Source of the DNA: Candidatus Saccharimonadota bacterium
GTDB lineage: Bacteria; Patescibacteriota; Saccharimonadia; Saccharimonadales; Saccharimonadaceae
Length of the DNA stretch: 32,000 nt
Assembly (NCBI RefSeq): GCF_025273655.1
Contig: NZ_CP045921.1
Coordinates: forward strand, 540,001-572,000
Reading direction: 5' to 3'
Positions 4,577-32,000 of the stretch are shown piece after piece (the stretch's first letter is position 1; each line of letters starts with the position of its first letter). Under the pieces are notes generated by a model, which saw only the letters and a list, made by a program, of their open reading frames with translations, had not been told where the DNA came from and ran no database searches. Made by a program: the position numbers and the translations under genes.

Positions 4577-5017
4577 TTACTTTACCTCAACTTTCTTTGG
4601 GGTTTGTGCGGTGTGCGCGTGTTCTGCGCCAGGAAACACCTTCAGGCGAGCCATGCGGTCGGCCTGGAGCTTGTTCTTTGGCAACATACCACGAACAGAT
4701 GCTTCGATAATGCGCTCTGGGAACTTCTCGCGAACTTCTTCGAGGCGTGCATCTTTGATGCCACCAGGGAAACCAGAGTGGCGATAGTAGATCTTCTGGA
4801 GCTCTTTATCGCCAGTTACTGGCACGTCTTTGGCGTTGATGACCACAACGTAGTCACCGGCGTCCATATGCGGAGTGTAAGTAGGCTTACCCTTGCCCGT
4901 GAGCAGCTGCGCGATGACAGTGCTGAGGCGTCCAAGTGGAAGCTCTGTTGCGTCAATCAGGTGCCACTCGCGAGTGATTTCTGATGGTTTCTGAGAGTAA
5001 GTTTTAGAATTGACCAT
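4577..5017 (-). CDS. rplM: 50S ribosomal protein L13
   Basis: 146 aa. The segment REWHLIDA...LGRLST.IA..L.GK is characteristic of L13. Confidence 0.93.
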   Translation of the reverse strand: MVNSKTYSQKPSEITREWHLIDATELPLGRLSTVIAQLLTGKGKPTYTPHMDAGDYVVVINAKDVPVTGDKELQKIYYRHSGFPGGIKDARLEEVREKFPERIIEASVRGMLPKNKLQADRMARLKVFPGAEHAHTAQTPKKVEVK

Positions 5018-5404: not shown

Positions 5405-6328
5405 TTACAGTTCTAACTCCGCTAGTTTATCTTTTACTTCATCAAGGGCTTTTGAGCCAAAGCCTTTGAGTTCACGAAGATCCTGCTCAGTCAAAGTCAC
5501 GAGGTCTTGGACGGTGCGGATTTCGTTGTTGATCAGCGCATTGGCTGTACGTGCTGTCAGGTTGAGCTCTTCGATAGGAGTGTTGAGCTCGTTAGCATCT
5601 TCGGCATCAGACTGACCGAGTGCAGGTGCAGCTTCGACAATCGTACTACCAGCCAGGGCTGTGTACTGATTAACCAAGATAGCCGCAGCTTCTTCAAACG
5701 CTTCACGCGGGCTCAATGTGCCGTCTGTGTCGACAGTGACTACTAGCTTGTCCAGGTTTGTTTCCTGACCAACACGAGTAGGGTCAACTTTGTAGCGTAC
5801 GCGAAGTACTGGGCTGAACACTGCGTCGAGCGCGATGTGATCTGAGTGTACACGAGACTCGCTTGACTCTTCGATAGTGCGGTAACCACGACCTGCGTCG
5901 ATGACGAGATCGATAGCGACAGCGCCCTTTGGATCATCAATTGTGCAGATAACCTGCTCTGGATTGATCACTTCTACATCTGCAGTCGTCTTGATATCGG
6001 CAGCAGTGACGACACCAGCACCCTTCTTCTCGAGGCGCAGCTCAACTGGCTGGTCGGCGTGTACTTTGACACGAACGTTTTTGAGGTTCAGGCTGATGTC
6101 GACGACATCCTCTTTGATCCCCTTTACCGTTGTGAACTCGTGCGTCGCACCTTCGATTTTGAACGAAACAATAGCGCCACCGGCGATGCTCGAAAGCAGT
6201 ACGCGGCGAAGGCTGTTGCCCAGGGTGTTACCGTAGCCAGCGTGTAGTGGCTCGATGACAAATGACGCGCTCGTAGCCGAATGATCATCGACGCTTGCAA
6301 GTGCAGGGTTGTGAATAACTTTTGTCAT
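5405..6328 (-). CDS. rpoA: DNA-directed RNA polymerase alpha subunit
   Basis: 307 aa. Has the N-terminal GNTLGNSLRRVLLSS motif and a C-terminal domain with LNLTARTANAL...I.TV.DL. Sits in the canonical position between rpsD and rplQ. Confidence 0.93.
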   Translation of the reverse strand: MTKVIHNPALASVDDHSATSASFVIEPLHAGYGNTLGNSLRRVLLSSIAGGAIVSFKIEGATHEFTTVKGIKEDVVDISLNLKNVRVKVHADQPVELRLEKKGAGVVTAADIKTTADVEVINPEQVICTIDDPKGAVAIDLVIDAGRGYRTIEESSESRVHSDHIALDAVFSPVLRVRYKVDPTRVGQETNLDKLVVTVDTDGTLSPREAFEEAAAILVNQYTALAGSTIVEAAPALGQSDAEDANELNTPIEELNLTARTANALINNEIRTVQDLVTLTEQDLRELKGFGSKALDEVKDKLAELEL

Positions 6329-19420: not shown

Positions 19421-20031
19421 TATGCTTCTCCTCCTACCAGCCATGCTTTGATCTGGTCGATAGCTTTGGCGCTGATCACGATATGATCGGCGTTGAGCAC
19501 GTCGTAGACATTGAGAAATGTCGGGCTGACCAATTTTACCTGCTGAACGTTACCGGTTGCACGGATCAACTCTGGAGTTTTTTCTGTGACAACCAAAACT
19601 TTACGTTCAAGTTTTTTGTCAGCGAGGTATTTCGCAACTTCGGCTGTTTTGCCAGTAGTCTTGATATCGTCGATAACAATCTTCTTGGCTTCGTTTGCAA
19701 GCGTAAGTGCTTGCTTTACAGCTACACGTTTTGAAGTCTTAGAAAGCTTCTTAGTGTAGTTTTCGTTGCCACGTGGACCAAATACAATACCACCAGTACG
19801 CCAGATAGGGTTGCGGGTGCTACCAAATCGTGCGCGGCCGGTACCTTTTTGCTTCCATGGCTTCTTACCACCACCGCTTACTTCGCCACGAGTTTTCGTG
19901 GTTGCGCTCGCGAGGCGGTTGTTTGCCAGATACGAATCGTACGCCAGCTTGAGTAGATCGTGGCTTGGCACTTCTACTGCGAAAACTTCTTTGGGCAAAG
20001 TCGTCTTCTTGGTTGTAGTGGTTTCTGCCAT
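19420..20031 (-). CDS. rplD: 50S ribosomal protein L4
   Basis: 203 aa. RGEVSGGGKKPWKQKGTGRAR.GS.R.P.W..GG..FGP is typical of L4. Confidence 0.9.
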   Translation of the reverse strand: MAETTTTKKTTLPKEVFAVEVPSHDLLKLAYDSYLANNRLASATTKTRGEVSGGGKKPWKQKGTGRARFGSTRNPIWRTGGIVFGPRGNENYTKKLSKTSKRVAVKQALTLANEAKKIVIDDIKTTGKTAEVAKYLADKKLERKVLVVTEKTPELIRATGNVQQVKLVSPTFLNVYDVLNADHIVISAKAIDQIKAWLVGGEA

Positions 20032-20645
20032 TACGCCTTACCTCCGATTACTACCAGACCCTTACGAGGGCCGGGTACTGCACCTTTGAGGCCGATGAGA
20101 TTGGTCTCGGCGTCGATGTACGCGACTGCCAAGTTTTTCACCGTCACTTGATCGTGACCCATGCGGCCAGGCATGCGCTTACCCTTGAAGACTTTTTGTG
20201 GGTACATCGAGCCGATTGAACCGACGCGACGCACATCACCGTTGCCACCGTGGGATTTTGCGCTTGTATTAAAGTTGTGTCGTTTTACCGTACCGGCAAA
20301 ACCTTTACCTTTTGATGTACCGGTTGCCTGGACGAGTTCACCCAGCTCAAACGTATTTACATCGATCGTATCCCCTACCTTGAGGCCTTCAGGTAGTTCA
20401 TTGACACGAAATTCCCGAATGTGCTTCGGAGTCACTTTGGCGGATTTTACATGTCCAGCCACGGCCTTGCTCAGGTTCTTACCCTCACCATATGCTACCT
20501 GAACTGCGTTGTAACCGTCGCTTTCGACAGTCTTCACCTGAGTCACAGTCACAGGGCCAGCTTGGATGAGTGTCACGGGTGTCACACGACCATCTTCGCC
20601 GATGATTTGGGTCATACCAATTTTGGTACCGAGAAGTGCTTTCAT
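20031..20645 (-). CDS. rplC: 50S ribosomal protein L3
   Basis: Start trimmed to MKALLGTKIGMTQI (cat at 20643-20645; alternative start at 20654), with GGGAGA 9 nt upstream. The upstream in-frame extension lies in the leader. Confidence 0.9.
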   Translation of the reverse strand: MKALLGTKIGMTQIIGEDGRVTPVTLIQAGPVTVTQVKTVESDGYNAVQVAYGEGKNLSKAVAGHVKSAKVTPKHIREFRVNELPEGLKVGDTIDVNTFELGELVQATGTSKGKGFAGTVKRHNFNTSAKSHGGNGDVRRVGSIGSMYPQKVFKGKRMPGRMGHDQVTVKNLAVAYIDAETNLIGLKGAVPGPRKGLVVIGGKA

Positions 20646-20775
20646 TGCCTTCATTCTCCCACTTAAAACCCTTGGTGGCCGACGGTTTCCCTGCTGCTTG
20701 GACTCCTCCACGCTCCGGGACCTTTCGATTCACCAAGGTCGCTTGCTATTGTTTGTACATAAAAGTAACCTTCTC

Positions 20776-20805
20776 ACTATAGCACGGAATAGGGGTGGGC
20801 GTCAA
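20776..20805 (-). promoter_or_regulatory. candidate promoter for the rplC-to-rpsH unit
   Basis: The minus strand reads TTGACG-18 nt-TATAGT. It lies about 125 nt upstream of the rplC ATG. Confidence 0.5.
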
Positions 20806-20839
20806 GAGACATTAGCTAAGTCACTAAGATGTGTCTTTA

Positions 20840-20868
20840 TTGACATTGTTATGTAAAAGTTGTAATAT
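20840..20868 (+). promoter_or_regulatory. candidate promoter (divergent from rplC promoter)
   Basis: TTGACA (20840-20845), a 17-nt spacer, then TAATAT (20863-20868). Confidence 0.55.
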
Positions 20869-20909
20869 ATATCTGCGATATGCACCCACACCTACGGAAG
20901 GCTGCAGTC

Positions 20910-21152
20910 ATGAAAGATCAAACCACACCACGCGCGACAACCCACGAGACCATCAAGCTCGACGAGCTAATTCAAGGGCTTGTCCGACAACTCGAAGCAA
21001 ACAAGATTCCGCTCGACGATGCTCTGCCGGCACTGCTTCTAGAGGCAATGGAGCATAACGAATCGCTCGGCGTTTTGTTTCGTCGACAAGCGGACACGAG
21101 CATGTACGACAGTCCGGCTTTCCAGGCGCTTCATCGTACGCGCTGCTGCTAA
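20910..21152 (+). CDS. hypothetical small protein (80 aa, mildly acidic, helical-looking, ends RTRCC)
   Basis: Start trimmed to the ATG at 20910, which has GGAAGG 8 nt upstream. The track start at 20880 lies only ~12 nt after the -10. No recognisable family. Confidence 0.4.
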   Translation: MKDQTTPRATTHETIKLDELIQGLVRQLEANKIPLDDALPALLLEAMEHNESLGVLFRRQADTSMYDSPAFQALHRTRCC

Positions 21153-21167
21153 GTGAGGAGTCTCTGA

Positions 21168-21317
21168 ATGATTTTCGGGTATAGACCCCTCGCGCAACAC
21201 ATACATGCCCTGCAACTTAGAATGCCGCGAGCAAAGACGAGCGGTAAACTGCCAAGGCACAACGATACGCGCATAGCGCGTCCGTTCGGACACATCCAAA
21301 GTGTCCGAAAGAAATAA
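21168..21317 (+). CDS. possible 49-aa strongly basic small ORF (may instead be structured non-coding RNA)
   Basis: Below the track cutoff. GAGGAG, 7 nt, then ATG. Translation: MIFGYRPLAQHIHALQLRMPRAKTSGKLPRHNDTRIARPFGHIQSVRKK. Its 3' half overlaps two hairpins at 21267-21281 and 21285-21309. Confidence 0.25.
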   Translation: MIFGYRPLAQHIHALQLRMPRAKTSGKLPRHNDTRIARPFGHIQSVRKK

Positions 21318-21333
21318 CGCCCCATACGGGTTC

Positions 21334-21384
21334 GAGAACCGCCCCACCAGGCTTGATCTCCCCGGTGGGGCGGTTCTCATTTTT
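21334..21384 (+). terminator. strong rho-independent terminator
   Basis: A 15-bp perfect GC-rich stem GAGAACCGCCCCACC/GGTGGGGCGGTTCTC (21334-21348 with 21364-21378), followed by ATTTTT. Confidence 0.75.
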
Positions 21385-21411
21385 GACATATTGATTTTTA
21401 GGTTTTACAAT
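21383..21411 (+). promoter_or_regulatory. near-consensus promoter for the Cys-rich ORF
   Basis: TTGACA (21383-21388), a 17-nt spacer, then TACAAT (21406-21411). The -35 overlaps the T-run of the preceding terminator. Confidence 0.6.
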
Positions 21412-21451
21412 AGCCTTTATCACGTGATCGCCACGTGAAGGAAGGAGCGCC

Positions 21452-21697
21452 ATGTGCGCCGATAAAAATCCGTGCGGCTCGCCGGACTTCTGTCTGGATG
21501 ACGGCGGATGCGCCTGCGGCATACCCGGCAACAGGGATCGAGTCAGTCCAAGAGTGACCCTCATCTATGGCCACGACACAGAAGAGCCAGCTTTTCTGTG
21601 TGCGAGCGGCAACGAGCGTTGCCCCACATTGCAAGCATGCGCGGAAGATCCCGACAACTGCATGCCCAATGTACCGCATATCCCGATAGTCCGGTGA
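21452..21697 (+). CDS. hypothetical Cys-rich small protein (81 aa, 9 Cys)
   Basis: SD gaAGGAGcgccATG. Cys at positions 2, 8, 14, 20, 22, 50, 57, 63 and 70. No signal peptide or TM helix. The frame choice rests on the promoter, SD and terminator context, because several other frames are open here. Confidence 0.45.
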   Translation: MCADKNPCGSPDFCLDDGGCACGIPGNRDRVSPRVTLIYGHDTEEPAFLCASGNERCPTLQACAEDPDNCMPNVPHIPIVR

Positions 21698-21710
21698 TGC
21701 ATAACTTCTC

Positions 21711-21750
21711 GTGCCGGAGGCTCGCTCGTATGAGCGATGACCTCCGGCAC
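21711..21750. terminator. convergent-gene hairpin (no U-tract)
   Basis: GTGCCGGAGG/CCTCCGGCAC (10 bp) plus an inner TCGCTC/GAGCGA (6 bp) with a GTAT loop. It lies between the Cys-rich ORF stop (21697) and the stop of the 576-aa gene (21777). Confidence 0.4.
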
Positions 21751-21776
21751 GATGATCAATTCCACCACTAGGGTAT

Positions 21777-23507
21777 TTATTGATTTCTGAGCTTTTCTAT
21801 TTCTTTTGTCAAATCGGCAATAGTCGCCCATGAACTTTTGTCTGTCATGATACTTAGCGCATACGTGCCGCTTGGGCTATATACAATCGCCGCATCGTGC
21901 AAGAGACCGTCCAAGAATCCGACTTTGTCGGCCACCTGTCCGCTCGCTCCTGCAGGGATACCTTGTCGATACACGTTACGTTTCAGTGCATCGAGAAAAC
22001 GTGCTTTGCTATCGGCATTCAGTGAAATCTGCCCGGTGGCGAGCGATGCCATAAACGTGCTCAGGTCTCCTGCTGTCGTCTTGTAGCTCTCCTTGTCGAG
22101 AAATGTTGTACTTGCGCTCACGATAGTTTGCGCGTCTTTCGTCAGTGGCGCATAGCCTATGCGAGCTACCAACGCCTCGGCACAGGCGTTGTCCGACTTC
22201 ACGATCATGTCGTCGAAGCACCTGGTGAGATCTCGACCGCCAGCCACCTGGTCGCTCCATTTGTACTCCCCTGATTCGATTCGCTTCAGTGTACTAAAGG
22301 CAACGTAGAGTTTATAGGTACTCGCAGTGGTGAATTTTTGCGTATCGTTATACGCGGCTCGGCGACGCTTACCGTCGAGCTCTACGAGCGACACACCGTA
22401 GACACCCGGGTGACTTTCTGCGTAGTTCTTCATGAGCGCAGAAAGACCAGTGTCGGTATTACTGTAGCTGCGCGCGTATTGCACTGTCGGCTGTACGAGT
22501 GCTTCGCCGAGTGGCACGGTTGCAGACTTAGCAAGCAGAAATTGCTTGAGATTCACATACGTCTTAGCTGTATCGAGCTGGCGACCCGTCTGGCCATCTT
22601 GGCGAGATACTTCTACAAAATCTTGGGTGGTTACTTTACTCACGCCTGCCTGCCTAGCAAGTGCGGCGCCGTATTTGTCTGTCAAATACTTGTCAGCTTG
22701 GGCCCCGTCAAATCGTATGTCAAACACATCTCCTTCAGTACTAAATGCCAACCATTCGCGAATCGTCTTGCTAGGCAGCATATCCGTCTTACTGTCGTAA
22801 GTAAGAGTTGCTGGCTGCGCCAGCTGATGGTTAAGAGTTGCAACAACGGGTTTCACCGTGTCTGCAGTAAGTTTGGCTGGCAGCGGGTCCATCGCAATGC
22901 GTGCGTTCGTCTGTGCAGTCAGAGTAGGGCTAACAGATTTAAGGGTTTTAGCGACATCTTGCCGCTGGCAGTTACCGCCATCCTCTTCTGCTACGACAAC
23001 GACCGAGTCGCCAGATACTTTAGCAGTAGCGTTGCGCGGCTCAACATGACACTCAGTACCAAACTGCTTCGTGAGATACGCATCGAGCTTTTTGTTATCT
23101 CGCGTATAGCTAGGTGCGCTAGGCTTGACCACCATATGCGACCAGAGAATCGAAGTAGGCACAAGACGAAGGTACCATGGATACGAGGCTTGTGCGACGC
23201 GCGAAGTATTGTCGACTCCGAGACCAAACTCAGCAAACTTTGGCTGGTACTGTGGAGTGGATGTCTTGCCAAAATAGAGTGCAAGTGTACGCTCGCTATA
23301 CTGCGAATCAAGCCGCTTCGCAGCCTGGTCAATGGTCACGGCGCCAAGTTGTTGACCATCTATTTGCTGCCAAGGCGCAAGTCTGTCGTACGGATACACA
23401 AGCTGCACGACGAGAAACAGACCCAAAATACCGGCCGGTACACCAATAGCAAGCTGCTTCTTGTGTGTCCGCAGCCACGCTCTCACCCCTCCCGTGCGAA
23501 TATTCAT
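21777..23507 (-). CDS. membrane-anchored serine hydrolase with C-terminal class A beta-lactamase-like domain
   Basis: 576 aa with one TM helix (residues ~19-38). The C-terminal ~220 aa carry S396-T-Y-K, S438-D-N, E473 followed by a KTTAGDL..FM segment, and K528-V-G. These correspond to the SxxK / SDN / omega-loop Glu / KTG motifs. The N-terminal ~340 aa are unassigned. Confidence 0.7.
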   Translation of the reverse strand: MNIRTGGVRAWLRTHKKQLAIGVPAGILGLFLVVQLVYPYDRLAPWQQIDGQQLGAVTIDQAAKRLDSQYSERTLALYFGKTSTPQYQPKFAEFGLGVDNTSRVAQASYPWYLRLVPTSILWSHMVVKPSAPSYTRDNKKLDAYLTKQFGTECHVEPRNATAKVSGDSVVVVAEEDGGNCQRQDVAKTLKSVSPTLTAQTNARIAMDPLPAKLTADTVKPVVATLNHQLAQPATLTYDSKTDMLPSKTIREWLAFSTEGDVFDIRFDGAQADKYLTDKYGAALARQAGVSKVTTQDFVEVSRQDGQTGRQLDTAKTYVNLKQFLLAKSATVPLGEALVQPTVQYARSYSNTDTGLSALMKNYAESHPGVYGVSLVELDGKRRRAAYNDTQKFTTASTYKLYVAFSTLKRIESGEYKWSDQVAGGRDLTRCFDDMIVKSDNACAEALVARIGYAPLTKDAQTIVSASTTFLDKESYKTTAGDLSTFMASLATGQISLNADSKARFLDALKRNVYRQGIPAGASGQVADKVGFLDGLLHDAAIVYSPSGTYALSIMTDKSSWATIADLTKEIEKLRNQ

Positions 23508-23528
23508 GGTATCCAGTATAGCAAACTA

Positions 23529-23882
23529 CTAGATGACGATGCCAGCGTTGAGGAAGAAGCCAATAATCGTCACGACCACGAGTACCGCATAGAGGATCTT
23601 ACGGTTAAACTGTGCGTGCTCAAGCCACGCGATTAGTACCAACGCAATCACCGCTCCAGCTGGAAATGCGCCGACAGGCAGCACGCCACCTATCATGACT
23701 GGATCTGCCAGACGTAGCCACATCAGACCGGCGAGTGTCACTACGACTAGCTTGAAGAGATATACACCATCTGGCTCGAAAACGTTTTCGAGACCTTTAC
23801 GGCTGACAACGGGGCGATTGCGAGCGTAGGTACGGGCTTTGTTGGATTTTTGTGTTGCCATAAGTACTTTGTAGTATAGCAT
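23529..23882 (-). CDS. hypothetical small integral membrane protein
   Basis: 117 aa (110 aa if it starts at the ATG at 23861). A basic N-terminus is followed by three hydrophobic segments. It ends 21 nt before the hydrolase start, so it is probably co-transcribed. Confidence 0.5.
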   Translation of the reverse strand: MLYYKVLMATQKSNKARTYARNRPVVSRKGLENVFEPDGVYLFKLVVVTLAGLMWLRLADPVMIGGVLPVGAFPAGAVIALVLIAWLEHAQFNRKILYAVLVVVTIIGFFLNAGIVI

Positions 23883-23883
23883 A

Positions 23884-23912
23884 TTGTAAGTTTTGTATAA
23901 ACATGATATAAT
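23884..23912 (+). promoter_or_regulatory. near-consensus extended -10 promoter
   Basis: TTGTAA (23884-23889), a 17-nt spacer, then TATAAT (23907-23912) preceded by TGA. This gives TGATATAAT, matching TGnTATAAT. Confidence 0.55.
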
Positions 23913-23951
23913 ATACTCCGTCCTACACCGACTACTGGGAGTACACTAATC

Positions 23952-24251
23952 ATGACTCTTGCGATCTTTATCATCAAGCCTGATGGCCGCGAGCTGCAAG
24001 TACCGATTGCCGAATCTGAGATTGGCAGCCGAGTCGTGGAAGTGACGCTTGACACAGAGACATTCCATATCTCGATGTCGGCACACACTTTTGTCCCTAC
24101 GGCTATCAACATCCGAGCCATGCGTGAAGGCATCGATGGCAGCCAAGTTTTCGGCATCAAGGTACCAAAACAGGTATTACGAGATGATTGTGCCTTTCGC
24201 GTTCATCTCACGTCCGGGACTGAAATCCATATCGCGCGGTCGAACATGTAG
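23952..24251 (+). CDS. hypothetical protein (99 aa, soluble, beta-rich looking)
   Basis: GGGAG lies 10 nt upstream of the ATG. The ORF is bracketed by a strong promoter and a terminator. No recognisable motif. Confidence 0.45.
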   Translation: MTLAIFIIKPDGRELQVPIAESEIGSRVVEVTLDTETFHISMSAHTFVPTAINIRAMREGIDGSQVFGIKVPKQVLRDDCAFRVHLTSGTEIHIARSNM

Positions 24252-24314
24252 CGACACGGCGAGGAGTCATACGACGATTGAGTCGCAAGGCTCTTCGTCG
24301 TTATGACGCCTACC

Positions 24315-24343
24315 AAAAACCACCCTGTGCAGGGTGGTTTTTT
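24315..24343. terminator. bidirectional terminator shared by rpsJ and the 99-aa ORF
   Basis: AAAAACCACCCT-GTGC-AGGGTGGTTTTTT. It lies 16 nt downstream of the rpsJ stop. Confidence 0.7.
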
Positions 24344-24358
24344 GTGATGACCGACTAG

Positions 24359-24673
24359 TTACATGCGAATTTCTGCATCGACACCAGCTGGGAGGCTGAG
24401 GTTTTGCAGGCTATCGATTGTCTTTGGCGACGCGTTGGTAATGTCGATAAGGCGCTTGTGTACACGCATCTCAAATGCTTCACCACCTTTTTTGTAGACG
24501 TGCGGGCTTTTGACGACCGTGAACGTACTACGACGAGTTGGCAAAGGGATGGGACCTGCCACATCAGCGCCGGTACGAACGGCAGTGTCGATAATTTGTT
24601 TTGCTGATTGGTCGATCACTTTGTGATCATACGCCTTGAGGCGAATGCGGATTTTGAGACCTGCGTCTGCCAT
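24359..24673 (-). CDS. rpsJ: 30S ribosomal protein S10 (NusE)
   Basis: Start trimmed to [18 protein letters not shown] (cat at 24671-24673), with AAGGAG 8 nt upstream. IRI.L.A.D....D and the PLPT loop are typical of S10. Confidence 0.92.
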
Positions 24674-24772
24674 GAGTAAAACTCCTTCTGCTTTCCGTAA
24701 CCTCTGCTCTGAATCGTGTCGGTACCCGCTCACGTCTGGCCGAGTTCTCGGAAAAATTAATAATACCTAGGT

Positions 24773-24801
24773 AGTATATAAGAAAGCGCTGGGTATTGCA
24801 A
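24773..24801 (-). promoter_or_regulatory. candidate rpsJ promoter
   Basis: The minus strand reads TTGCAA (24796-24801), a 17-nt spacer, then TATACT (24773-24778). Confidence 0.5.
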
Positions 24802-24824
24802 GCATTTCACCTCTGGTGTATACT
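24796..24824 (+). promoter_or_regulatory. candidate promoter of the plus-strand cassette, sharing the same -35 hexamer
   Basis: The plus strand reads TTGCAA (24796-24801), a 17-nt spacer, then TATACT (24819-24824). TTGCAA is its own reverse complement. Confidence 0.5.
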
Positions 24825-24908
24825 GCCACAATACTCCAGGTATCCAGAAGACGCCGCCGGAGTCGCCTCGCCGCAGATCGCGCGCGAGTCATAGGACAGG
24901 GAGATGAA

Positions 24909-25238
24909 ATGAACCTGCACGAAGAACTCGTCAATCAGATCGTAGACATCGCAGACAACAACGCGAGCGACCACCTCGAGATCTCAATGCGATATCTTCT
25001 CGAGCGAGTTGCAGATGCAGTTCAGCAGACGACAATATTGCCGGCGCCTCATGAAGAGCGAGCCAGTTTTTTGCAGTCCGTGGCCATCCAGGCCTCGAGT
25101 CGACTAAAACAGCGGACTGTCACTTACGAGGAGCCTGTATCCCAAGAGGGATTTTGGCAGCGAAGCCCGAAGGGCAGGCGTACAATCGTGCCCATACGGC
25201 CATCTCAGCAACGTTTCCATGTCAGGTACGCCGCCTGA
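24909..25238 (+). CDS. hypothetical protein (109 aa; acidic helical N-half, basic C-half)
   Basis: Start trimmed to the ATG at 24909 (GGGAGA 4-5 nt upstream), because the track GTG start at 24816 lies inside the promoter. No known motif recognised. Confidence 0.45.
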   Translation: MNLHEELVNQIVDIADNNASDHLEISMRYLLERVADAVQQTTILPAPHEERASFLQSVAIQASSRLKQRTVTYEEPVSQEGFWQRSPKGRRTIVPIRPSQQRFHVRYAA

Positions 25239-25250
25239 GCACACAACGGA

Positions 25251-25287
25251 GACGAGCCGGGGGACATCGTTGTCCCCTGTCCTCGTC
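25251..25287 (+). other. two-tier GC hairpin in intercistronic gap
   Basis: Outer GACGAG/CTCGTC (25251-25256 with 25282-25287) and inner GGGGACA/TGTCCCC (25260-25266 with 25271-25277), with a TCGT loop. No U-tract follows. Confidence 0.4.
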
Positions 25288-25367
25288 ACCCAAGCTGTCA
25301 ATAGTTTGACGATTTGGGTGACGTATTATTTACATTCCTATCAAGCAAGCGTACACTAGCAGTAACC

Positions 25368-25850
25368 ATGAGTGCCATGCCACTTTCTCACGAGTTTGCC
25401 TCGGCCGACGAGGGCGGCGGCACCGTGCCTCATCACTTGCTGCGAATAGCAGAAAAACATAATGTTTATGAAACCGAGCGCATGCGCATACTTCGCGCGC
25501 AGCTCACACATATAGCCATAGCTGATAGCGAAAAGATGGCCGACCTACGCGTCGAATACCTCGAGGAGCTCAATCGCCCAGAGTTTGACGCACGAAGATA
25601 TGATACACCCGAAAAGTTTTTTATTGCCAGAGGCCATACCGCACTTCGCGCGCTCCTGTTCTATATAGCTCATTTATACAGTGAGTCCTGGCAAGAGCAC
25701 GGGTGGCTTATCGATGATCTCAAGATCGCACAAGATGACCAAGAGTCACTCGCACTTGCCTATACATCACGCTCAGAAATTGAGACCGTCCTCAAACAGC
25801 ACTATGCGACACATCTTCCAGCAAACTCTCAGCTCTATAGCATAGACTGA
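25368..25850 (+). CDS. hypothetical protein (160 aa, helical-looking, soluble)
   Basis: The first ATG is at 25368; the track uses a TTG at 25314. There is no clear SD. No known motif recognised. Confidence 0.45.
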   Translation: MSAMPLSHEFASADEGGGTVPHHLLRIAEKHNVYETERMRILRAQLTHIAIADSEKMADLRVEYLEELNRPEFDARRYDTPEKFFIARGHTALRALLFYIAHLYSESWQEHGWLIDDLKIAQDDQESLALAYTSRSEIETVLKQHYATHLPANSQLYSID

Positions 25851-25908
25851 TATGCAGCGGCCACCATGGACGCTACCGACTCAAAGTCGGTCAACACGAG
25901 GAGGCTAG

Positions 25909-26349
25909 ATGCTCCCGGCACCTACACAAGTTCTCTCGCGCATGGGCGCATTCGACCCCGAGTGGATGAATTTCAGACTCGAAGTAAAACCTTTGGTCAA
26001 TACGAGTGAGCCCATCTACTGCAACAATGAAAGTGCAACTGTTGAACATGTGATACGCAGAACCGTGTGCAATGACGCGCTGACACGAGCCTCCGCCGTG
26101 CTCGCAAACCCCGACACACGTTTTAATGTCGATATCGAGCTCATAGATACCGACAAAGTGCCCGACTTCTCACTCAAGTTGGGACTTCTGACGGACATGC
26201 TTTTCTACAGTAACCTTAGCCAGAGTCTGCAGGTAGAGAAAGGAGGGCTCGGCATACTCGCATTTGAGTCACCCGCCAACATTCGGCGCGGCCGCCCTGC
26301 CATAGTTACGATTGGGCTGAACCACTATCCAGAAGATCAGCTTCCCTAG
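25909..26349 (+). CDS. hypothetical protein (146 aa, soluble)
   Basis: A strong SD, GAGGAGG, lies 4 nt upstream of the ATG. A 7-bp hairpin ACCGACT/AGTCGGT (25875-25891) lies just upstream. No known motif recognised. Confidence 0.55.
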   Translation: MLPAPTQVLSRMGAFDPEWMNFRLEVKPLVNTSEPIYCNNESATVEHVIRRTVCNDALTRASAVLANPDTRFNVDIELIDTDKVPDFSLKLGLLTDMLFYSNLSQSLQVEKGGLGILAFESPANIRRGRPAIVTIGLNHYPEDQLP

Positions 26350-26404
26350 CTAGAAGAGGTTCCGAAGATGCATCGCCTCCTCGGTCACCTTCTCGTTTCA
26401 TAAC

Positions 26405-26432
26405 AAAAACCTCCGAGTTACCGGAGGTTTTT
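26405..26432. terminator. bidirectional terminator shared by tuf and the plus-strand cassette
   Basis: AAAAACCTCCG-AGTTAC-CGGAGGTTTTT. It lies 17 nt downstream of the tuf stop. Confidence 0.7.
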
Positions 26433-26449
26433 GTCGCTACTGCAGTAGA

Positions 26450-27631
26450 CTATTTGTTGATCTTGGTAACGACACCAGCACCAACGGTACGGCCACCTTC
26501 GCGGATAGCGAAGTTAAGACCCTGTTCCATCGCGATTGGAGCGAGAAGTTTGACCTTGAATGTCAGTGTATCGCCAGGCATGACCATTTCTTTGTCCGCT
26601 GGAAGCTCTACTTCACCAGTTACGTCCGTAGTACGGAAGTAGAACTGTGGCTTGTAGCCCTTGCTAAATGGAGTGTGGCGACCGCCCTCTTCCTTCTTCA
26701 AGATGTAGACTTCAGCTTCGAACTCTGTATGTGGAGTGATGCTACCTGGTTTGGCAAGCACCTGACCGCGTTCGATCTGATCGCGCTCGATACCGCGGAG
26801 GAGCAGACCGGCGTTGTCACCAGCCTGACCTTGGTCGAGCTGTTTCTTGAAGGCTTCGATACCAGTCACAACTGATTTCTGAGTGTCTTTCACGCCGACG
26901 ATTTCTACTTCGTCATTGAGTTTGACAACACCCTGCTCGATACGACCGGTAGCAACAGTACCACGACCTTTGATCGAGAAGACGTCTTCGATAGGCATCA
27001 GGAATGGCTTGTCCATGTCACGAGCTGGCTCCGGTACGTAGTCGTCGAGGGCCTTGACAAGCTCCATAACAGCATCTTCGTACTGAGCGTCACCTTCGAG
27101 AGCCTTAGTAGCAGAACCCTTGATGATAGGTGCACTTGCGTCGAAACCGTTCTTTTCGAGCAGTTCTTGGATGTCCATCTCTACGAGTTCGACGAGTTCT
27201 GGATCAGCGATGTCCATCTTGTTGAGGAAGACGACGATCTTTGGCACACCAACCTGCTTTGCGAGCAGTACGTGTTCGCGAGTCTGTGGCAGTGGGCCGT
27301 CAGTTGCAGCAACCACGAGGATTGCGCCGTCAACCTGTGCAGCACCAGTGATCATGTTTTTGACGTAGTCGGCGTGACCAGGCATGTCGACGTGAGCGTA
27401 GTGACGCTTCTCTGACTCGTATTCCTGGTGAGAAGAAGCAATGGTGATACCACGCGCTTTTTCTTCTGGAGCGTTGTCGATCTCGTCATAGTTACGAGGT
27501 TTGTTGACATCGCTAGGAAGGCGCTTTGCAAGCACGTGAGTGATTGCAGCTGTTAGAGTTGTTTTACCGTGGTCGACGTGGCCCATAGTACCGACGTTGA
27601 CGTGTGGTTTGCTACGATCAAAATCTGCCAT
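26450..27631 (-). CDS. tuf: elongation factor Tu
   Basis: 393 aa. [18 protein letters not shown] and NKMD GTPase motifs are present, with full-length EF-Tu architecture. Confidence 0.97.
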
Positions 27632-27707
27632 TGTGGATTTTTCTCCTGATTACTTATATTTTCGCGCGGGCGGTCTAAAGCAAAAGACTCTCACGGCGTA
27701 TAGATTT

Positions 27708-27736
27708 AGTATACAGGTTTTTAAAGAATACGTAAA
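27708..27736 (-). promoter_or_regulatory. candidate tuf promoter
   Basis: The minus strand reads TTTACG (27731-27736), a 17-nt spacer, then TATACT (27708-27713). It lies about 70 nt upstream of the tuf ATG. Confidence 0.45.
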
Positions 27737-27760
27737 GTATGTTCTCTGTAAAAACACGTT

Positions 27761-28297
27761 TTAGCCGTTTTGGCTAGAATCACCCGATTCACTCGACTGG
27801 CTTGTGCCCTGGGTACCTGCGCCTGGGCCACCGCGCATTTGCGGATTCAGTTCAATTGTAGTTGCAGTGTCCGAGCTACTATTCGACGTCTCGACACGTA
27901 CTGTATCACCAGTCTTGATATCACTAATTGCGGCGGCCTCCCCGTTGTTCGTCACTTTAGTATCGCTAGTGATCTTGTACGTCGTCGTGCTACCCTCGGA
28001 GTTACTGTCACTATCACCTTGCCCCATGCGCATCATGCGAGACTCGATAGTGACACTTGAGTCCGACACAGTTGTAACTGTGCCAAAGCCACCACGCATC
28101 ATGCCCGAGCCACCGCGCTGCCCAGACATCGAGTCCATGCCCTGCATGCCCGAGCCATTACTCGCCTTGCCGATCTGCATTCCGGCGAACAAACCAGCTC
28201 CCGCTGAAACCACTATCGCCACGACGATAGCGATATACCATTTTGCCGAACTCTCCTGTCTCGCCACACTTGGCGGTGTTGTCATTTGTTCTGTCAT
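27761..28297 (-). CDS. membrane-anchored or secreted Gly/Met/Ser-rich protein with beta-rich core (possibly DUF5666-like)
   Basis: 178 aa with an N-terminal TM/signal helix (WYIAIVVAIVVSAGAGLFAG). Met/Gly-rich repeats are present (GSGMQGMDSMSGQRGGSGMMRGG; MMRMGQGD; PQMRGGPGAG). The core TVTTVSDSSVTIES...KITSDTKVT..G..A.ISDIKTGDTV.V follows. The family call is from memory only. Confidence 0.5.
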   Translation of the reverse strand: MTEQMTTPPSVARQESSAKWYIAIVVAIVVSAGAGLFAGMQIGKASNGSGMQGMDSMSGQRGGSGMMRGGFGTVTTVSDSSVTIESRMMRMGQGDSDSNSEGSTTTYKITSDTKVTNNGEAAAISDIKTGDTVRVETSNSSSDTATTIELNPQMRGGPGAGTQGTSQSSESGDSSQNG

Positions 28298-28300
28298 AGT

Positions 28301-28342
28301 TTCCTTTCGTTGCTTATACTACCAGCAACTGTACGAAAGGAA
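28301..28342 (-). promoter_or_regulatory. hairpin sequestering the SD of the 27761-28297 gene
   Basis: TTCCTTTC (28301-28308) pairs with GAAAGGAA (28335-28342). An inner GTTGCT/AGCAAC stem forms from 28309-14 and 28324-29. On the mRNA, the 3' arm CGAAAGGAAact immediately precedes the ATG and contains the only SD-like sequence. Confidence 0.35.
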
Positions 28343-28355
28343 TGTTAATGCCTGC

Positions 28356-30053
28356 TTAATCCGCGAGTGATTTGTGGCGAAGCGCTGCTCGGCCGAGCTT
28401 GACCATATGCTTCTCGCGGTAGCGCTCAAAACTCTGCTTACTAATACCATGATTGGATATAAACATACTCATGCGTTCTGAGCCTATGAAGTGGGGTAGC
28501 ATGACATAGCTGACACCCAGTTGATAGAGTTCGGCCGCTTCATTGTACGAGTTAGCATAGCAGACTATAGCCGCTTCAGGATTGCGTTTGAGAATATACT
28601 TACTGAGCGAAACGTTGATAGTATGGTCGCCGATAGTATTTACTACCAGTTTGGCCGCGTCCATCTCAAGCTCCGCCAGTAACTCGGGGTCGGTGGCATC
28701 GCCATAGAGATAGTCCACATTTGCTTTGTGGAGATCTTCGATAACTTCTGGATCGTAGTCCACCACCACAAACTTCTTCTTAAGCTCTCTGAACGTGCGG
28801 AGGTACTGATGGCCACCGTTTTTGAACCCAAAGAGGATAAGCGGATATTCCTTAGCCTCATGGTGTGCATCGACAGCTCCACGGCGCTCAAACATACGCA
28901 ACCGGTGATCGATCTTCTGGTAGATCTTGTTGTCATACTGCATGAGGTACGTGGAGATAGTGATGGTAATCAGTGCCACTAGTGTCACAACCGCGCTCAA
29001 TCGCTCGCCTACCATACCAGTCGATGCCGCCAGTACGATCATGATTATTGAAAACTCACTAATCTGCGATAAATTGATGCCCGTCTTGAAGCTCGTGCGG
29101 CGCGTGTACCCCAGCAAGCCAAGCGAGGTCATGACGACGAGCGGCTTGAGTATTACCACCAACGCCGCGATGATCAGTGCCGGTACGAGTGCAGCACCAA
29201 GATTGGCAAAGTTGAGGTTTTCGCCCAGACTAATAAAGAAGAGAACGACGAAGAAATCTCGCAGCGGCTTGAGCCTCGCACCAATCTGGTGCGCATATGG
29301 CAGATGCGCAAGCGCCACACCGGCGAAGAGTGCGCCGATTTCGATTGAGAAGCCAACCGCACTCACCAGTGATGCTACACCAAAGCCCCATGCCAGTGCA
29401 AAGAGAAATAGCAACTCCTGAGACTTCGCCACCGATTTGACGACACGCGGTAGCACTTTGATCGCCACAAGCGCCAACACGCCGATGACCGCCACACCTT
29501 TGAGCAGCAGCATACCGATCTCAAATGGCCCGAGTACCTCGCCACTACTCGACGTCGCCACAAACAGCAGCGCAAACGTTGCCACTATGTCGTCGAGCAG
29601 GATGACACCGATGGCGATTTGACCGTTGAGTCGCGAGATCTCCTTTTTGTCACTCAACACCTTAGCGATGATGATCGTACTACTAAAGAACATGGCAAGC
29701 CCAAGCAGTATCGCTTCTTGCGTAGTAAAGTGAAATGCCGAACCTACTAGGAAACCGATCGTACCCACCGTTGCTAGAATTGCTGCAGCGGTGAGAAAGA
29801 CTGGCTTACCCAACCTCCGGATCACCGATACACTCAGTTCTAACCCGATGATAAAGAGGAGGAGTGCAATACCCAACTCGCTAAACGTCTCAAACGAATG
29901 CTTGTCTTGTATGAGATGGAGCATACTCGGCCCCACCAAAATACCCGTGAGAATATGCCCGACAATAAGAGGCTGCTTGAGCCGGCGCATGAGCAACGCC
30001 ATAAGCGTCGCGACGACAAGCACTACCGCCAGTTGTGTAAAAACATCCCCCAT
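28356..30053 (-). CDS. CPA2-family monovalent cation:proton antiporter (Kef-type) with C-terminal RCK/TrkA-N domain
   Basis: 565 aa. About 12 hydrophobic helices begin at a typical Na_H_exchanger N-terminus (QPLIVGHILTGILVGPS). A cytoplasmic Rossmann-like segment follows (ILFGFKNGG...VVVDYD). AAGGAG lies 8 nt upstream. Confidence 0.8.
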   Translation of the reverse strand: MGDVFTQLAVVLVVATLMALLMRRLKQPLIVGHILTGILVGPSMLHLIQDKHSFETFSELGIALLLFIIGLELSVSVIRRLGKPVFLTAAAILATVGTIGFLVGSAFHFTTQEAILLGLAMFFSSTIIIAKVLSDKKEISRLNGQIAIGVILLDDIVATFALLFVATSSSGEVLGPFEIGMLLLKGVAVIGVLALVAIKVLPRVVKSVAKSQELLFLFALAWGFGVASLVSAVGFSIEIGALFAGVALAHLPYAHQIGARLKPLRDFFVVLFFISLGENLNFANLGAALVPALIIAALVVILKPLVVMTSLGLLGYTRRTSFKTGINLSQISEFSIIMIVLAASTGMVGERLSAVVTLVALITITISTYLMQYDNKIYQKIDHRLRMFERRGAVDAHHEAKEYPLILFGFKNGGHQYLRTFRELKKKFVVVDYDPEVIEDLHKANVDYLYGDATDPELLAELEMDAAKLVVNTIGDHTINVSLSKYILKRNPEAAIVCYANSYNEAAELYQLGVSYVMLPHFIGSERMSMFISNHGISKQSFERYREKHMVKLGRAALRHKSLAD

Positions 30054-30280
30054 CCGCTAGGCTCCTTTTTGTGTTGAGTGTAGCATTAGAACTATTGTAC
30101 CATATGGCTTAATTATAAGATTCACCGCCTTACTATCTATAGTTCTCTGCGGTGGTTGTTTCGGTACAGGTATACTGGATGAGCACACAGCTGATGCGGC
30201 AACGTTATGAAGTCAGCTACAAACTGTATACTTGTTCGTGCCAGACTAGCATGATGCGCATCCCAGATAGCCATGTCATA

Positions 30281-30318
30281 ACATAAAATAAATACACCAC
30301 CTTTTCAGATGGTGTATT
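30281..30318 (-). terminator. rho-independent terminator after fusA
   Basis: A 9-bp stem AATACACCA/TGGTGTATT (30291-30299 with 30310-30318). On the minus strand it is followed by TATTTTATGT. It lies 17 nt downstream of the fusA stop. Confidence 0.6.
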
Positions 30319-30335
30319 CCATGTTGATCAAAAGG

Positions 30336-32000
30336 CTACTTGCTGCGCTTTTCGATGATCTCCTGCGCGACGTTTGGCGGTACTTCTTCGTACTGCGCCA
30401 GCTCCATAGTCGAAGCGGCACGACCTTGGCTCATCGAGCGCAGGTCACCGGTGTAGCCAAACATGCTCATGAGTGGCACAAACGCCTTGATAAGCTTGGC
30501 GCCACCTTGTAGATCTTCCATGGCGTCGATACGGCCACGGCGGCTGTTGAGGTCACCGATCACGTCGCCCATGAAGTCTTCTGGAGTCGTCACTTCGACT
30601 TTCATGACAGGCTCGAGCAGCACTGGCGTTGCTTTCTTGATACCTTCGCGGGTCGAGAGGCTACCGGCAAGTTTGAAGGCCAGCTCGCTCGAGTCGACAT
30701 CGTGGTAACTACCATCGTAGAGCGTTGCTTTGACATCTACTACTGGGTAGCCAGCAATAACACCGCCTTCGAGGGTCTCTTTGACGCCCTGTTCGACAGG
30801 CTTGCGGTACTCAGCTGGTACGACACCACCCTTGATTTCGTCGAAGAACTCAAAGCCTTTGCCGGGTTCGTTTGGTTCGAAACGGATCCAGACATCACCG
30901 TACTGACCGCGTCCCCCAGATTGCTTGGCATGCTTACCTTGTGCTTCGGCAGTACCCTTGATCGATTCGCGGAATGCCACCTGCGGCGCACCGATGTTCG
31001 CCTCCACGTTGAATTCGCGTTTCATACGATCGATGAGGATGTCCAGGTGCAGCTCACCCATACCAGACATAATCGTTTGACCAGTCTCTTCGTCGGTGTG
31101 CACACGGAAAGTTGGGTCTTCTTCGGCTAGACGTTGCAGAGCGATACCCATCTTCTCTTGGTCGGCCTTGGTCTTTGGCTCGACGGCGATGGCAACTGGT
31201 GGCTCTGGGAATGTGATGCTTTCGAGAGCGATAGGATGCGCCAAGTCAGACAGTGTATGACCAGTAAACGTACTCTTGAGACCCACTACAGCTGCGATGT
31301 CGCCAGCTACAATCTGGTCAATTTCTTCGCGCTTGTCGGCGTGCATACGCACGATACGACCGACGCGTTCTTTTTCGCCGGTAGCCGTGTTAAGCACGTA
31401 GCTACCCGATTTGAGTACACCAGAGTAGACGCGTACGAAGATGAGCTTACCGACAAATGGGTCAGTCGCGATCTTGAACGCCAAGCCAGCCATAGGCTCT
31501 TTGTCGTCTGGCTTGCGGCTAATCTCGTTGCCAGTCTTAGGGTCAACACCCCAGATCTCGTCGACATCGAGTGGACTTGGCAGATAATCAGCCATGATAT
31601 CGAGCAGTTTCTCCACGATCACACCGCGACCGTCACCACCACTTACTAGGAAGAAGTCGCCAGCCAATACACGCTTACGCAGTGCTGCTTTGAGTTCTGG
31701 CTCAGTGATCGAATCTTCACCCTTGTCGAGGAAGCGCTCGAACAGTTCGTCGTCGGCTTCGACGGCCGCTTCGACGAGCAGGCTGCGTGCGTGCTTCGCC
31801 TTCTCAAGCATATCTGCTGGTATTTCACCCTGGATAAGCTCGTGGTCAGCGTAGTCATTGTATGTGTAGGCTTTCATGTCGACGAGATCGACCACACCGT
31901 TGATCTCTTTCTCAAACCCGATAGGCAGGTGCACTGGCAACGCGTGCTTGCTCAGGCGATTGTGGATTGTCTCGAGGCTCTTGTAGAAATCGCCACCAGT
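30336..32000 (-). CDS. fusA: elongation factor G (partial; N-terminal GTPase domain beyond window end)
   Basis: The frame stays open to nt 32000. Own translation upstream of the track start reads TGGDFYKSLETIHNRLSKHA-LPVHLPIG. The track start at 31940 is an internal TTG. EF-G domains II-V are recognisable. Confidence 0.95.
   Translation of the reverse strand, partial: TGGDFYKSLETIHNRLSKHALPVHLPIGFEKEINGVVDLVDMKAYTYNDYADHELIQGEIPADMLEKAKHARSLLVEAAVEADDELFERFLDKGEDSITEPELKAALRKRVLAGDFFLVSGGDGRGVIVEKLLDIMADYLPSPLDVDEIWGVDPKTGNEISRKPDDKEPMAGLAFKIATDPFVGKLIFVRVYSGVLKSGSYVLNTATGEKERVGRIVRMHADKREEIDQIVAGDIAAVVGLKSTFTGHTLSDLAHPIALESITFPEPPVAIAVEPKTKADQEKMGIALQRLAEEDPTFRVHTDEETGQTIMSGMGELHLDILIDRMKREFNVEANIGAPQVAFRESIKGTAEAQGKHAKQSGGRGQYGDVWIRFEPNEPGKGFEFFDEIKGGVVPAEYRKPVEQGVKETLEGGVIAGYPVVDVKATLYDGSYHDVDSSELAFKLAGSLSTREGIKKATPVLLEPVMKVEVTTPEDFMGDVIGDLNSRRGRIDAMEDLQGGAKLIKAFVPLMSMFGYTGDLRSMSQGRAASTMELAQYEEVPPNVAQEIIEKRSK

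Follow-up and report, generated by a model that had tools for sequence, protein, structure and literature searches.

An accessory operon with a conserved two-hairpin RNA element between tuf and rpsJ of Candidatus Mycosynbacter amalyticus

We describe a small operon lying between the genes tuf (EF-Tu) and rpsJ (ribosomal protein S10) of Candidatus Mycosynbacter amalyticus, a cultured wastewater Saccharibacterium with Gordonia as its host. The stretch analysed, called the window below, is 32,000 nucleotides (nt) long (contig NZ_CP045921.1, positions 540,001 to 572,000 of the forward strand), and all coordinates given without a locus name refer to it. On the minus strand lie rpsJ (24359-24673; Pfam Ribosomal_S10, E 1e-33) and tuf (26450-27631). 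Between them, on the plus strand, are three open reading frames (ORFs), here called the cassette, whose annotation is hypothetical: ORF1 (24909-25238, 109 amino acids (aa), GII36_03195 / WP_260762389, to which it is 100% identical), ORF2 (25368-25850, 160 aa, GII36_03200 / WP_260762390) and ORF3 (25909-26349, 146 aa, GII36_03205 / QHN42847). An initial annotation, made from the letters alone, had pointed to three plus-strand ORFs of these lengths at this site, and our analysis confirms them (24796-26434). They are genuine coding genes and form an accessory operon, best seen as a genus-restricted and exchangeable occupant of a hotspot, not as a fixed three-gene module. ORF1 is the first gene of the module and ORF2 an optional member.

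Related loci (designated by L numbers) were gathered through the neighbouring beta-lactamase-like gene and the exact S10 protein. S10 is 100% identical in L050-L059 by exact look-up, and identical or nearly identical at the other loci. The ORFs are more than chance open frames, given their same-site homologues elsewhere, purifying selection specific to one frame, and covariation in an RNA element between ORF1 and ORF2. The divergent same-site copies in other lineages have open frames, with length, start and stop kept at 33-67% aa identity. One deep lineage, L049, carries the whole cassette at the equivalent site, flanked by rpsJ and the 3′ end of tuf. Compared with L049, the proportions of nonsynonymous and synonymous differences (pN/pS) in the annotated frame are 0.19/0.54 for ORF1, 0.39/0.71 for ORF2 and 0.47/0.79 for ORF3, while pN and pS are about equal once the frame is shifted; pN < pS is restricted to the annotated frame in all three genes. 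The corresponding rate ratio, omega, for ORF1 in its annotated frame is 0.28 against L004 and 0.22 against L049, while the other five frames give 0.4-1.6 against L004; over the comparisons with L004 and L049, shifted frames have an omega of about 1.0-1.6. The initial annotation had allowed for ORFs that lack homologues outside this genome and show neutral-looking substitutions; what we find is homologues and purifying selection.

Within the species, a strain with 98.9% DNA identity (L001) has the identical arrangement. Nonsynonymous to synonymous (N:S) substitutions in the cassette genes range from 3N:2S to 7N:5S (omega ~0.4). The flanking genes give 0N:9-12S for tuf, 2N:46S for an antiporter and 1N:25S for fusA (omega ~0-0.01). 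The GC content of the cassette is native-like. Genes that are constrained yet evolve fast are as expected for accessory or conflict-related proteins.

The ORF1 protein is split by charge: residues 1-50 have an isoelectric point (pI) of 4.4 and residues 51-109 one of 11.7. The initial annotation described it as an acidic helical half followed by a basic, probably disordered half. The acidic helical N-terminal half and the charge split stand, but the basic C-terminal half is probably not simply disordered, since the C-terminal tail is among the best-conserved parts of the ORF1 proteins of three-gene (type I) cassettes, with the motifs RTVxYEE, PKGRRT and FHVRYAA. Homologues of ORF1 have 63% identity in L004, 67% in L049 and 31% in L055. 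L004 is a 594-bp contig whose ORF1 homologue has equal length, start and stop, and an in-frame stop upstream of the ATG there fixes the ORF1 start at 24909. The basic tail of ORF1 carries a charge of +7.9; ORF2 (-9.6) and ORF3 (-5.3) are both acidic. No transmembrane-like stretch or signal peptide was found in any of the three proteins, as initially noted.

ORF2 is predicted to be all-alpha. An exhaustive HMMER search of 1.84 billion representatives returned, apart from a near-identical copy, a sole divergent homologue, P0005, with 45% identity, which is encoded in L049 at the position equivalent to ORF2. An AlphaFold2 model from a 3-sequence alignment was all-helical (pLDDT 45.6) and too poor for use. 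ORF2 contains an imperfect internal repeat, RILRAQLTHIA (25490-25516) and TALRALLFYIA (25643-25669), 51 codons apart. The repeat is also recognisable in P0005 and suggests an internally duplicated helical unit.

ORF3 encodes an apparently mixed alpha/beta protein and is the most widespread and fastest-evolving member of the module. In searches of a small local database, its homologues were those in L049 (33% identity, E 1e-13), in L055 (27.5%, E 4e-12) and in L054/L056 (~24-28%, E 2e-7); the L049 and L055 proteins match each other with E 1e-26. The only invariant polar residues among five sequences are T44 and E46. The single-sequence AlphaFold2 model was mixed alpha/beta, with pLDDT 44.2, too poor for use. 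RefSeq starts ORF3 at Met12, which omits 25909-25941 and gives a protein of 135 aa. The 146-aa start is supported by an N-terminal MLPxP conserved in four of five aligned sequences and by a Shine-Dalgarno sequence kept in L049. Gene callers place antisense ORFs over the ORF3 homologues of L049 (3766-4200), L054 (3767-4198, minus strand) and also L056, so that protein-level searches miss homologues such as that of L049.

Profile and sequence searches agree with the initial annotation that these proteins belong to no recognisable family. Pfam, NCBIfam, PADLOC and PHROGs held no significant match for the window proteins or their divergent homologues, and PDB held none by sequence or by profile. 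Searches of phage and plasmid sequences with tblastn gave no match for the cassette proteins, one scan of IMG/VR and two of JGI metagenomes with ORF1 alignments found nothing, and a word-indexed search of 5.8 billion proteins returned same-genus copies only. The weak library matches were noise, far below curated cut-offs: Pectate_lyase and Cas11 for ORF3, and CHAD for P0005. The best PADLOC match, AbiEi on ORF2 (15.4 bits, E 0.0025 within the library), was not significant. ORF1, ORF2 and ORF3 are, as far as such comparisons reach, three undescribed orphan protein families. The initial annotation's idea of an undescribed module therefore survives for the proteins, which are new; but they occur in one genus-level group only, and the novelty is real but modest.

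Upstream of ORF1, a consensus scan identified the cassette promoter P1 (24796-24824, plus strand; TTGCAA-17 nt-TATACT). It was initially called near-consensus. The promoter is present and conserved in four diverged alleles, but matches 9 of 12 consensus positions, which makes it decent and not near-consensus. Back-to-back with it lies a candidate rpsJ promoter on the minus strand (24773-24801; -35 TTGCAA at 24801-24796, -10 TATACT at 24778-24773), whose function we infer from the same scan. The two have in common the palindromic -35 hexamer TTGCAA (24796-24801), and RNA polymerase could probably occupy only one of them at a time. This promoter block is conserved in L004, L049, L054 and L055 and is common to the three cassette types. 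Alleles whose protein-coding DNA cannot be aligned have 83-86% identity in it; cassette-free loci have other sequence there. Because the block is common to all cassette types and includes the candidate rpsJ promoter, an exchanged segment would bring the rpsJ promoter along.

The 5′ untranslated region (5′UTR) of ORF1 (24831-24908, plus strand) contains two blocks, GCCGCAGATCGCG and TAGGACAGGGAGAT, that are conserved in the multi-locus alignment; it has no significant fold (z = -0.5). The Shine-Dalgarno sequences noted initially, GGGAGA before ORF1 (24899-24904) and GAGGAGG before ORF3 (25898-25904), are present and conserved. ORF2 has none. A candidate internal promoter P2 (25329-25357, plus strand; TTTACA-17 nt-TACACT) was found by scanning and is kept in L049, the other ORF2-bearing allele. 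As P2 ends 10 nt before the ORF2 ATG and ORF2 lacks a Shine-Dalgarno sequence, ORF2 may be leaderless or nearly so and transcribed from P2.

Between ORF2 and ORF3, upstream of the ORF3 Shine-Dalgarno sequence, is a 7-bp hairpin (25875-25891, plus strand). It was described as stable; it is real, and kept in L049 with one compensatory change (ACCGAC/GTCGGT to GCCGAC/GTCGGC), but modest (z = -2.2). A further imperfect hairpin (26353-26394, plus strand) occupies the space from the ORF3 stop to the terminator, and hairpins at this position were read by eye from the unfolded sequences of L049, L055, L054, L059 and L005. The operon ends, as first proposed, at a bidirectional intrinsic terminator shared with tuf (26403-26434; AAAAACCTCCG-loop-CGGAGGTTTTT), with a GC-rich stem of 13-15 bp and A/U tracts, which folds on both strands and is present in all relatives, empty sites included. 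Promoter, Shine-Dalgarno sequences, intercistronic hairpins and shared terminator are all conserved, which bears out the impression of a non-random organisation.

On the other side of the promoter block, the rpsJ 5′ leader (24674-24770; CTCTGCTC.GAAT.GTGTC...GCTCAC.TCTG.CCGAGTTCTC) is conserved in most related loci, empty sites included, and is more diverged yet still recognisable in L006. It may be an S10-operon regulatory leader; Rfam gave no match above threshold for it.

Between ORF1 and ORF2 lies the two-hairpin RNA element (25251-25322, plus strand, ~70-90 nt). The two-tier hairpin at 25251-25287 of the initial annotation is real: hairpin 1 spans 25254-25284 with an outer stem at 25251-25287. 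It is directly followed by a second hairpin, absent from that annotation, at 25285-25322, and a conserved tail, TATTTACATT, runs to ~25341. Together the two hairpins have z = -5.7 against shuffles in the window. The element has 77-85% nucleotide identity in L049, L054, L055 and L004, amid coding DNA that is unalignable, and all five copies fold alike (z -3.7 to -6.6). The consensus structure has 96% of cells paired and compensatory changes in 7 pairs, a result that none of 500 shuffles reaches; slid controls were 38-53% paired. Several conserved G-U pairs, possible on the sense strand alone, indicate a structure of the sense transcript. A covariance model run over 765 kb found exactly one copy per cassette-bearing locus, and none in cassette-free loci or elsewhere in that sequence. 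Nothing in Rfam matches the element; the sole Rfam match in 24700-26460 is a sub-threshold rimP-leader at the terminator (26351-26438). The element is thus a new motif of structured RNA, supported by covariation. Hairpin 1 hardly varies in sequence, even at its bulges; a generic stabiliser would not need so much conservation, which hints that a specific partner binds it. The stems are strong, and 3-8 nt beyond hairpin 2 begins a U-rich stretch, UAUUAUUUACAUU; a terminator scan made no call here.

The contents of the tuf-rpsJ slot vary among the relatives. The slot is empty, at ~240 bp, in L019, L052, L053 and L057. ORF1-ORF2-ORF3 (type I) is found in the window, L001, L051, L058 and L049, and partially in L004. 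L055 (type II) has an ORF1-like gene of 106 aa and an ORF3-like gene of 144 aa without ORF2, and L054 and L056 (type III) have a 65-aa gene in the ORF1 slot and an ORF3-like gene, also without ORF2. An unrelated gene, family B, stands alone in L059 and L007, and is joined in L005 and L050 by three tail-fibre-like genes; L006 has another orphan, of 170 aa. The picture of a fixed insertion into a conserved gene pair is therefore lost, as the slot is strain-variable, has several alternative contents and is empty in close relatives. That of a three-gene cassette as the conserved unit is lost as well, since only one of three allele types has ORF2, and L055 and L054/L056 lack it. ORF2 is an optional add-on that has a candidate promoter to itself. 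Every cassette-bearing lineage has both an ORF1-slot and an ORF3-family gene, and the two change type together. The conserved core consists of the bidirectional promoter block, the ORF1-slot gene, the two-hairpin RNA, the ORF3-family gene and the terminator shared with tuf. The cassette is limited to Mycosynbacter-like Saccharibacteria, with at least three very divergent allele types.

Two of the alternative contents deserve description. The tail-fibre-like genes (L005 6198-9017, L050 1959-4778) are co-directional, encode 260, 342 and 336 aa, and include a DUF5907 repeat and PKD-like domains; they resemble tail-fibre or adhesin-like surface proteins. The ORF1-slot gene of type III (L054 4285-4768, minus strand) encodes 65 aa, ~14% identical to window ORF1. 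The ~230 nt that separate this gene from the RNA element hold no clear ORF, and the gene, which has an intact ORF3-type gene beside it, may be a partner that was frameshifted or truncated.

Slot content does not follow descent. Clades drawn from the identities of the beta-lactamase-like protein and EF-Tu do not match it. The window and L054 have EF-Tu 99.5% and beta-lactamase-like proteins 86% identical, and their ORF3 proteins are ~24-28% and their ORF1-slot proteins ~14% identical. The deep lineage L049 (beta-lactamase-like protein 62%) keeps type I, with ORF1 at 67% and ORF2 at 45%, and L055 (type II) groups with L005 and L059, both family B carriers. This conflict with phylogeny implies that the interval has been exchanged or replaced within the genus. 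At the DNA level the window and L054 are 80-93% identical in flanking genes, 85.5% in the segment of rpsJ, promoter and 5′UTR, and 84.9% in the RNA element (~90 nt), and blastn gives no match between them in the ORFs. The non-coding scaffold is thus ~85% identical where the proteins drop to 14-30%. No tRNA gene, flanking direct repeat or target duplication was found at the locus.

The ORF3 family may extend further. Aligned by hhalign, the ORF3 family and family B match over the same 59 columns, a strand-turn-helix motif, with E 0.008 and a probability of 5%; the score of 23.0 exceeds those of all 120 column shuffles (mean 12.2, sd 2.3, maximum 21.4). A relationship between the two is suggested. 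If the kinship were real, one hypervariable family would occupy the tuf-proximal position of nearly all filled slots. The L006 orphan aligns at the same motif, not significantly, as 9-11 of 120 shuffles reach its score. A likeness of family B and ORF3 to bL17, first noticed by eye, was set aside: the family B profile had E 0.5 in PDB, hhalign with the organism's own L17 scored ~12.5, which is background, and Pfam Ribosomal_L17 was not matched in the library scans. Upstream of the L059 family B gene (~4770-4900, minus strand) and of the L006 orphan (~6120-6240, minus strand) there is a similar promoter-like block, TTGACTT...TATTATA..ATATGTGC, noted by eye only, which appears to be a second case of a conserved regulatory region before different ORFs.

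Several genes that are not ribosomal break up the classical fusA-tuf-rpsJ-rplC block of the window (20031-31940): a Na+/H+ antiporter with TrkA_N (28356-30053), a DUF5666-like protein (27761-28297), a 117-aa membrane protein (23529-23882), a 576-aa PG_binding_4/beta-lactamase-like protein (21777-23507) and small ORFs (21039-21564). Several of the gaps vary among relatives; in L054, for example, an AI-2E transporter separates the beta-lactamase-like gene from rplC. A 99-aa plus-strand ORF (23952-24251) is situated between rpsJ and the gene of the membrane protein. Contigs of the same species have it as a called gene; the other related loci, the close relative L054 included, held no homologue, and the ORF is perhaps species-specific or spurious.

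Chromosomal hotspots, or regions of genome plasticity, are core-gene-flanked sites of defence and accessory islands. The slot resembles them in its near-identical tuf and rpsJ flanks, in contents that are strain-variable, sometimes empty and discordant with phylogeny, and in the lack of an evident integrase, which fits exchange by homologous recombination in the flanks. It differs in being very small (0.24-3.9 kb), in lying inside the str/S10 ribosomal block and including the candidate promoter of the essential rpsJ, and in that several alternative alleles have a common conserved non-coding scaffold. An integron attC site or mobile-element insertion was considered and rejected, as no integrase is evident near the locus and there are neither flanking repeats nor a tRNA gene. 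The arrangement of a variable ORF and, after it, an imperfect inverted repeat that is conserved and contains bulged bases does recall integron cassettes. Unlike in integrons, however, no integrase was seen among the genes called at related loci or, short of a systematic scan, among the window ORFs; reading the RNA-element alignment revealed no RYYYAAC/GTTRRRY core sites; and the element occurs once per locus, has sense-strand G-U pairing and lies between genes of a promoter-equipped operon.

Intercistronic hairpins in mRNA set differential expression within operons, as attenuators or 3′-end stabilisers. The RNA element is like these in its stable GC-rich stems right after the first cistron, the distal U-rich stretch and the candidate downstream promoter, and its conservation is structural, with covariation. 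It is unlike generic stabilisers in the near-invariance of hairpin 1, the lack of a U-tract directly after the stem and the lack of an Rfam family. Comparison with type II toxin-antitoxin systems, including toxin-antitoxin-chaperone systems, is also mixed. The cassette is small and self-promoted with an optional third gene; a small protein with a charged tail comes first, then a partner of ~145 aa; two adjacent small genes co-occur and are putatively co-transcribed; and it is patchy among close relatives, in a variable slot between core genes, with partners that change type together. Unlike type II systems, it has no similarity to toxin-antitoxin or defence families in Pfam, NCBIfam, PADLOC or PDB, its gaps of ~130 and 58 nt contain hairpins and show no tight coupling, and the only promoter palindrome that might serve autoregulation is the shared -35 TTGCAA. 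Unlike type III (ToxIN-like) systems, the RNA element is single-copy without tandem repeats, and there is no ToxN/AbiQ match.

Our tentative reading, which we hold at somewhat less than even confidence, is that the module is a polymorphic two-partner conflict or addiction-type system. Strains would swap whole intervals through homologous recombination, with tuf and rpsJ as near-identical anchors on either side, which we infer to be the simplest route given those flanks and the lack of a tRNA gene, flanking repeat or evident integrase. ORF1 would be made first and act as a regulator or neutralising partner. The hairpin pair after it, as an attenuator or an mRNA-stabilising 3′ end, would leave ORF1 in excess over the downstream gene or genes. 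Through its basic conserved tail, ORF1 might then bind the acidic ORF3 protein and so regulate or neutralise it, and perhaps bind its own RNA element as well, with ORF3 as the effector partner and ORF2 as an accessory adaptor. The co-occurrence of ORF1-slot and ORF3-family genes, the basic tail of ORF1 against the acidic ORF2 and ORF3, and the many within-species nonsynonymous polymorphisms are consistent with such a pair. In its evolutionary pattern the locus is like toxin-antitoxin, immunity or defence loci of hotspots.

Several observations weigh against a conflict system. The proposal draws on architecture and evolutionary pattern, without homology or a usable structure model. The five ORF3-family sequences have no conserved catalytic-looking residues. 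The gaps between the genes (~130 and 58 nt) are long and structured, neither overlapping nor coupled, and hairpin 2 has no directly adjoining U-tract, so a terminator or attenuator role is only proposed. The family is confined to one genus and has not been spread by horizontal transfer. In L054/L056 an intact ORF3-type gene adjoins a 65-aa, possibly truncated ORF1-slot gene, and family B, if it is a distant ORF3 relative, stands alone in L059 and L007, which argues against an obligatory neutralising partner. The poorer codon usage of the cassette relative to neighbouring genes is a further caution.

A bolder form of the conflict reading is rather doubtful in our estimate. Here ORF1, the two-hairpin RNA and ORF3 would make up an undescribed polymorphic conflict system of the candidate phyla radiation (CPR), for example for abortive infection or strain incompatibility, in which the regulatory RNA scaffold is conserved and the protein pair built on it diversifies or is exchanged. 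One hypervariable superfamily, made up of the ORF3 family, family B and the L006 orphan, would then fill the tuf-proximal slot throughout the genus. If so, the position beside tuf and the rpsJ promoter would tie expression or inheritance of the module to essential translation genes.

The main rival sees no selfish or conflict module here and takes the genes as niche-specific accessory proteins of a parasitic life cycle (for example regulators, adaptors or cytoplasmic factors that fit a particular host strain), with rapid divergence reflecting adaptation to different hosts. We judge it somewhat unlikely. It gains from lineage-restricted, fast-evolving proteins, from the tail-fibre or adhesin-like genes (DUF5907, PKD) in the L005/L050 slot, which suggest host-interaction cargo, and from the biology of M. 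amalyticus, an obligate parasite of Gordonia (PMC11880426). With no signal peptide or transmembrane segment, though, direct host contact would need an unknown export route; the conflict between distribution and phylogeny holds even between near-identical genomes; and nothing ties the genes to attachment or lysis functions.

Less likely still is a slowly decaying remnant of mobile-element or phage cargo, transcribed and open but without a current cell function. Such a remnant would account for the within-species omega of ~0.4 against ~0 in the neighbours, the poor codon usage, the empty slot in several relatives, the short ORF1-slot gene of L054/L056 and the absence of ORF2 from two allele types. 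It sits badly with the lack of an evident integrase, tRNA gene, flanking direct repeat or target duplication, with the lack of homologues in phage, plasmid and IMG/VR collections, and with the native-like GC. The frames are moreover intact, with pN < pS across lineages at which synonymous sites are saturated, and promoter, 5′UTR and RNA element are strongly conserved.

That the proteins are translation-related housekeeping or regulatory factors acting on EF-Tu or the S10 operon is very improbable. Their location invites the idea, as do the shared -35 hexamer, through which cassette and rpsJ promoters could compete for RNA polymerase, and the weak family B profile match to bL17 in PDB (E 0.5). 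It is largely refuted by the absence of the cassette in close relatives with identical S10 and 93-97% identical EF-Tu; unrelated genes replace the cassette in other relatives, it is 10-100 times less constrained than its neighbours, and the bL17 similarity is at background (~12.5) for the organism's own L17. Chance open frames in a long non-coding spacer, to which the antisense gene calls over the ORF3 homologues of L049 and L054 and a low codon-usage score might point, are already refuted by pN < pS in the annotated frame alone of all three genes and by length, start, stop and Shine-Dalgarno sequences conserved at 33-67% aa identity, and have the least chance of all.

CPR bacteria, Saccharibacteria included, have tiny genomes with a large share of genes without known function. 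M. amalyticus is among their few cultured members and has a tractable host, which offers a rare chance to test an orphan module. Because the organism is cultured and a whole-cell proteome of this strain exists (bioRxiv 10.64898/2026.03.03.709456; PRIDE PXD078107, ~75% proteome coverage), the questions raised here are directly testable. New in this locus are three apparent orphan protein families, one covariation-supported RNA motif and a swap-prone slot inside the str/S10 block. Even the textbook-conserved tuf-rpsJ junction can act as an accessory-gene exchange slot in a reduced genome, and the exchanged segment carries the candidate promoter of the essential ribosomal gene rpsJ. If the conflict or addiction reading were true, the module would be a CPR-specific system invisible to homology-based defence and toxin-antitoxin finders.

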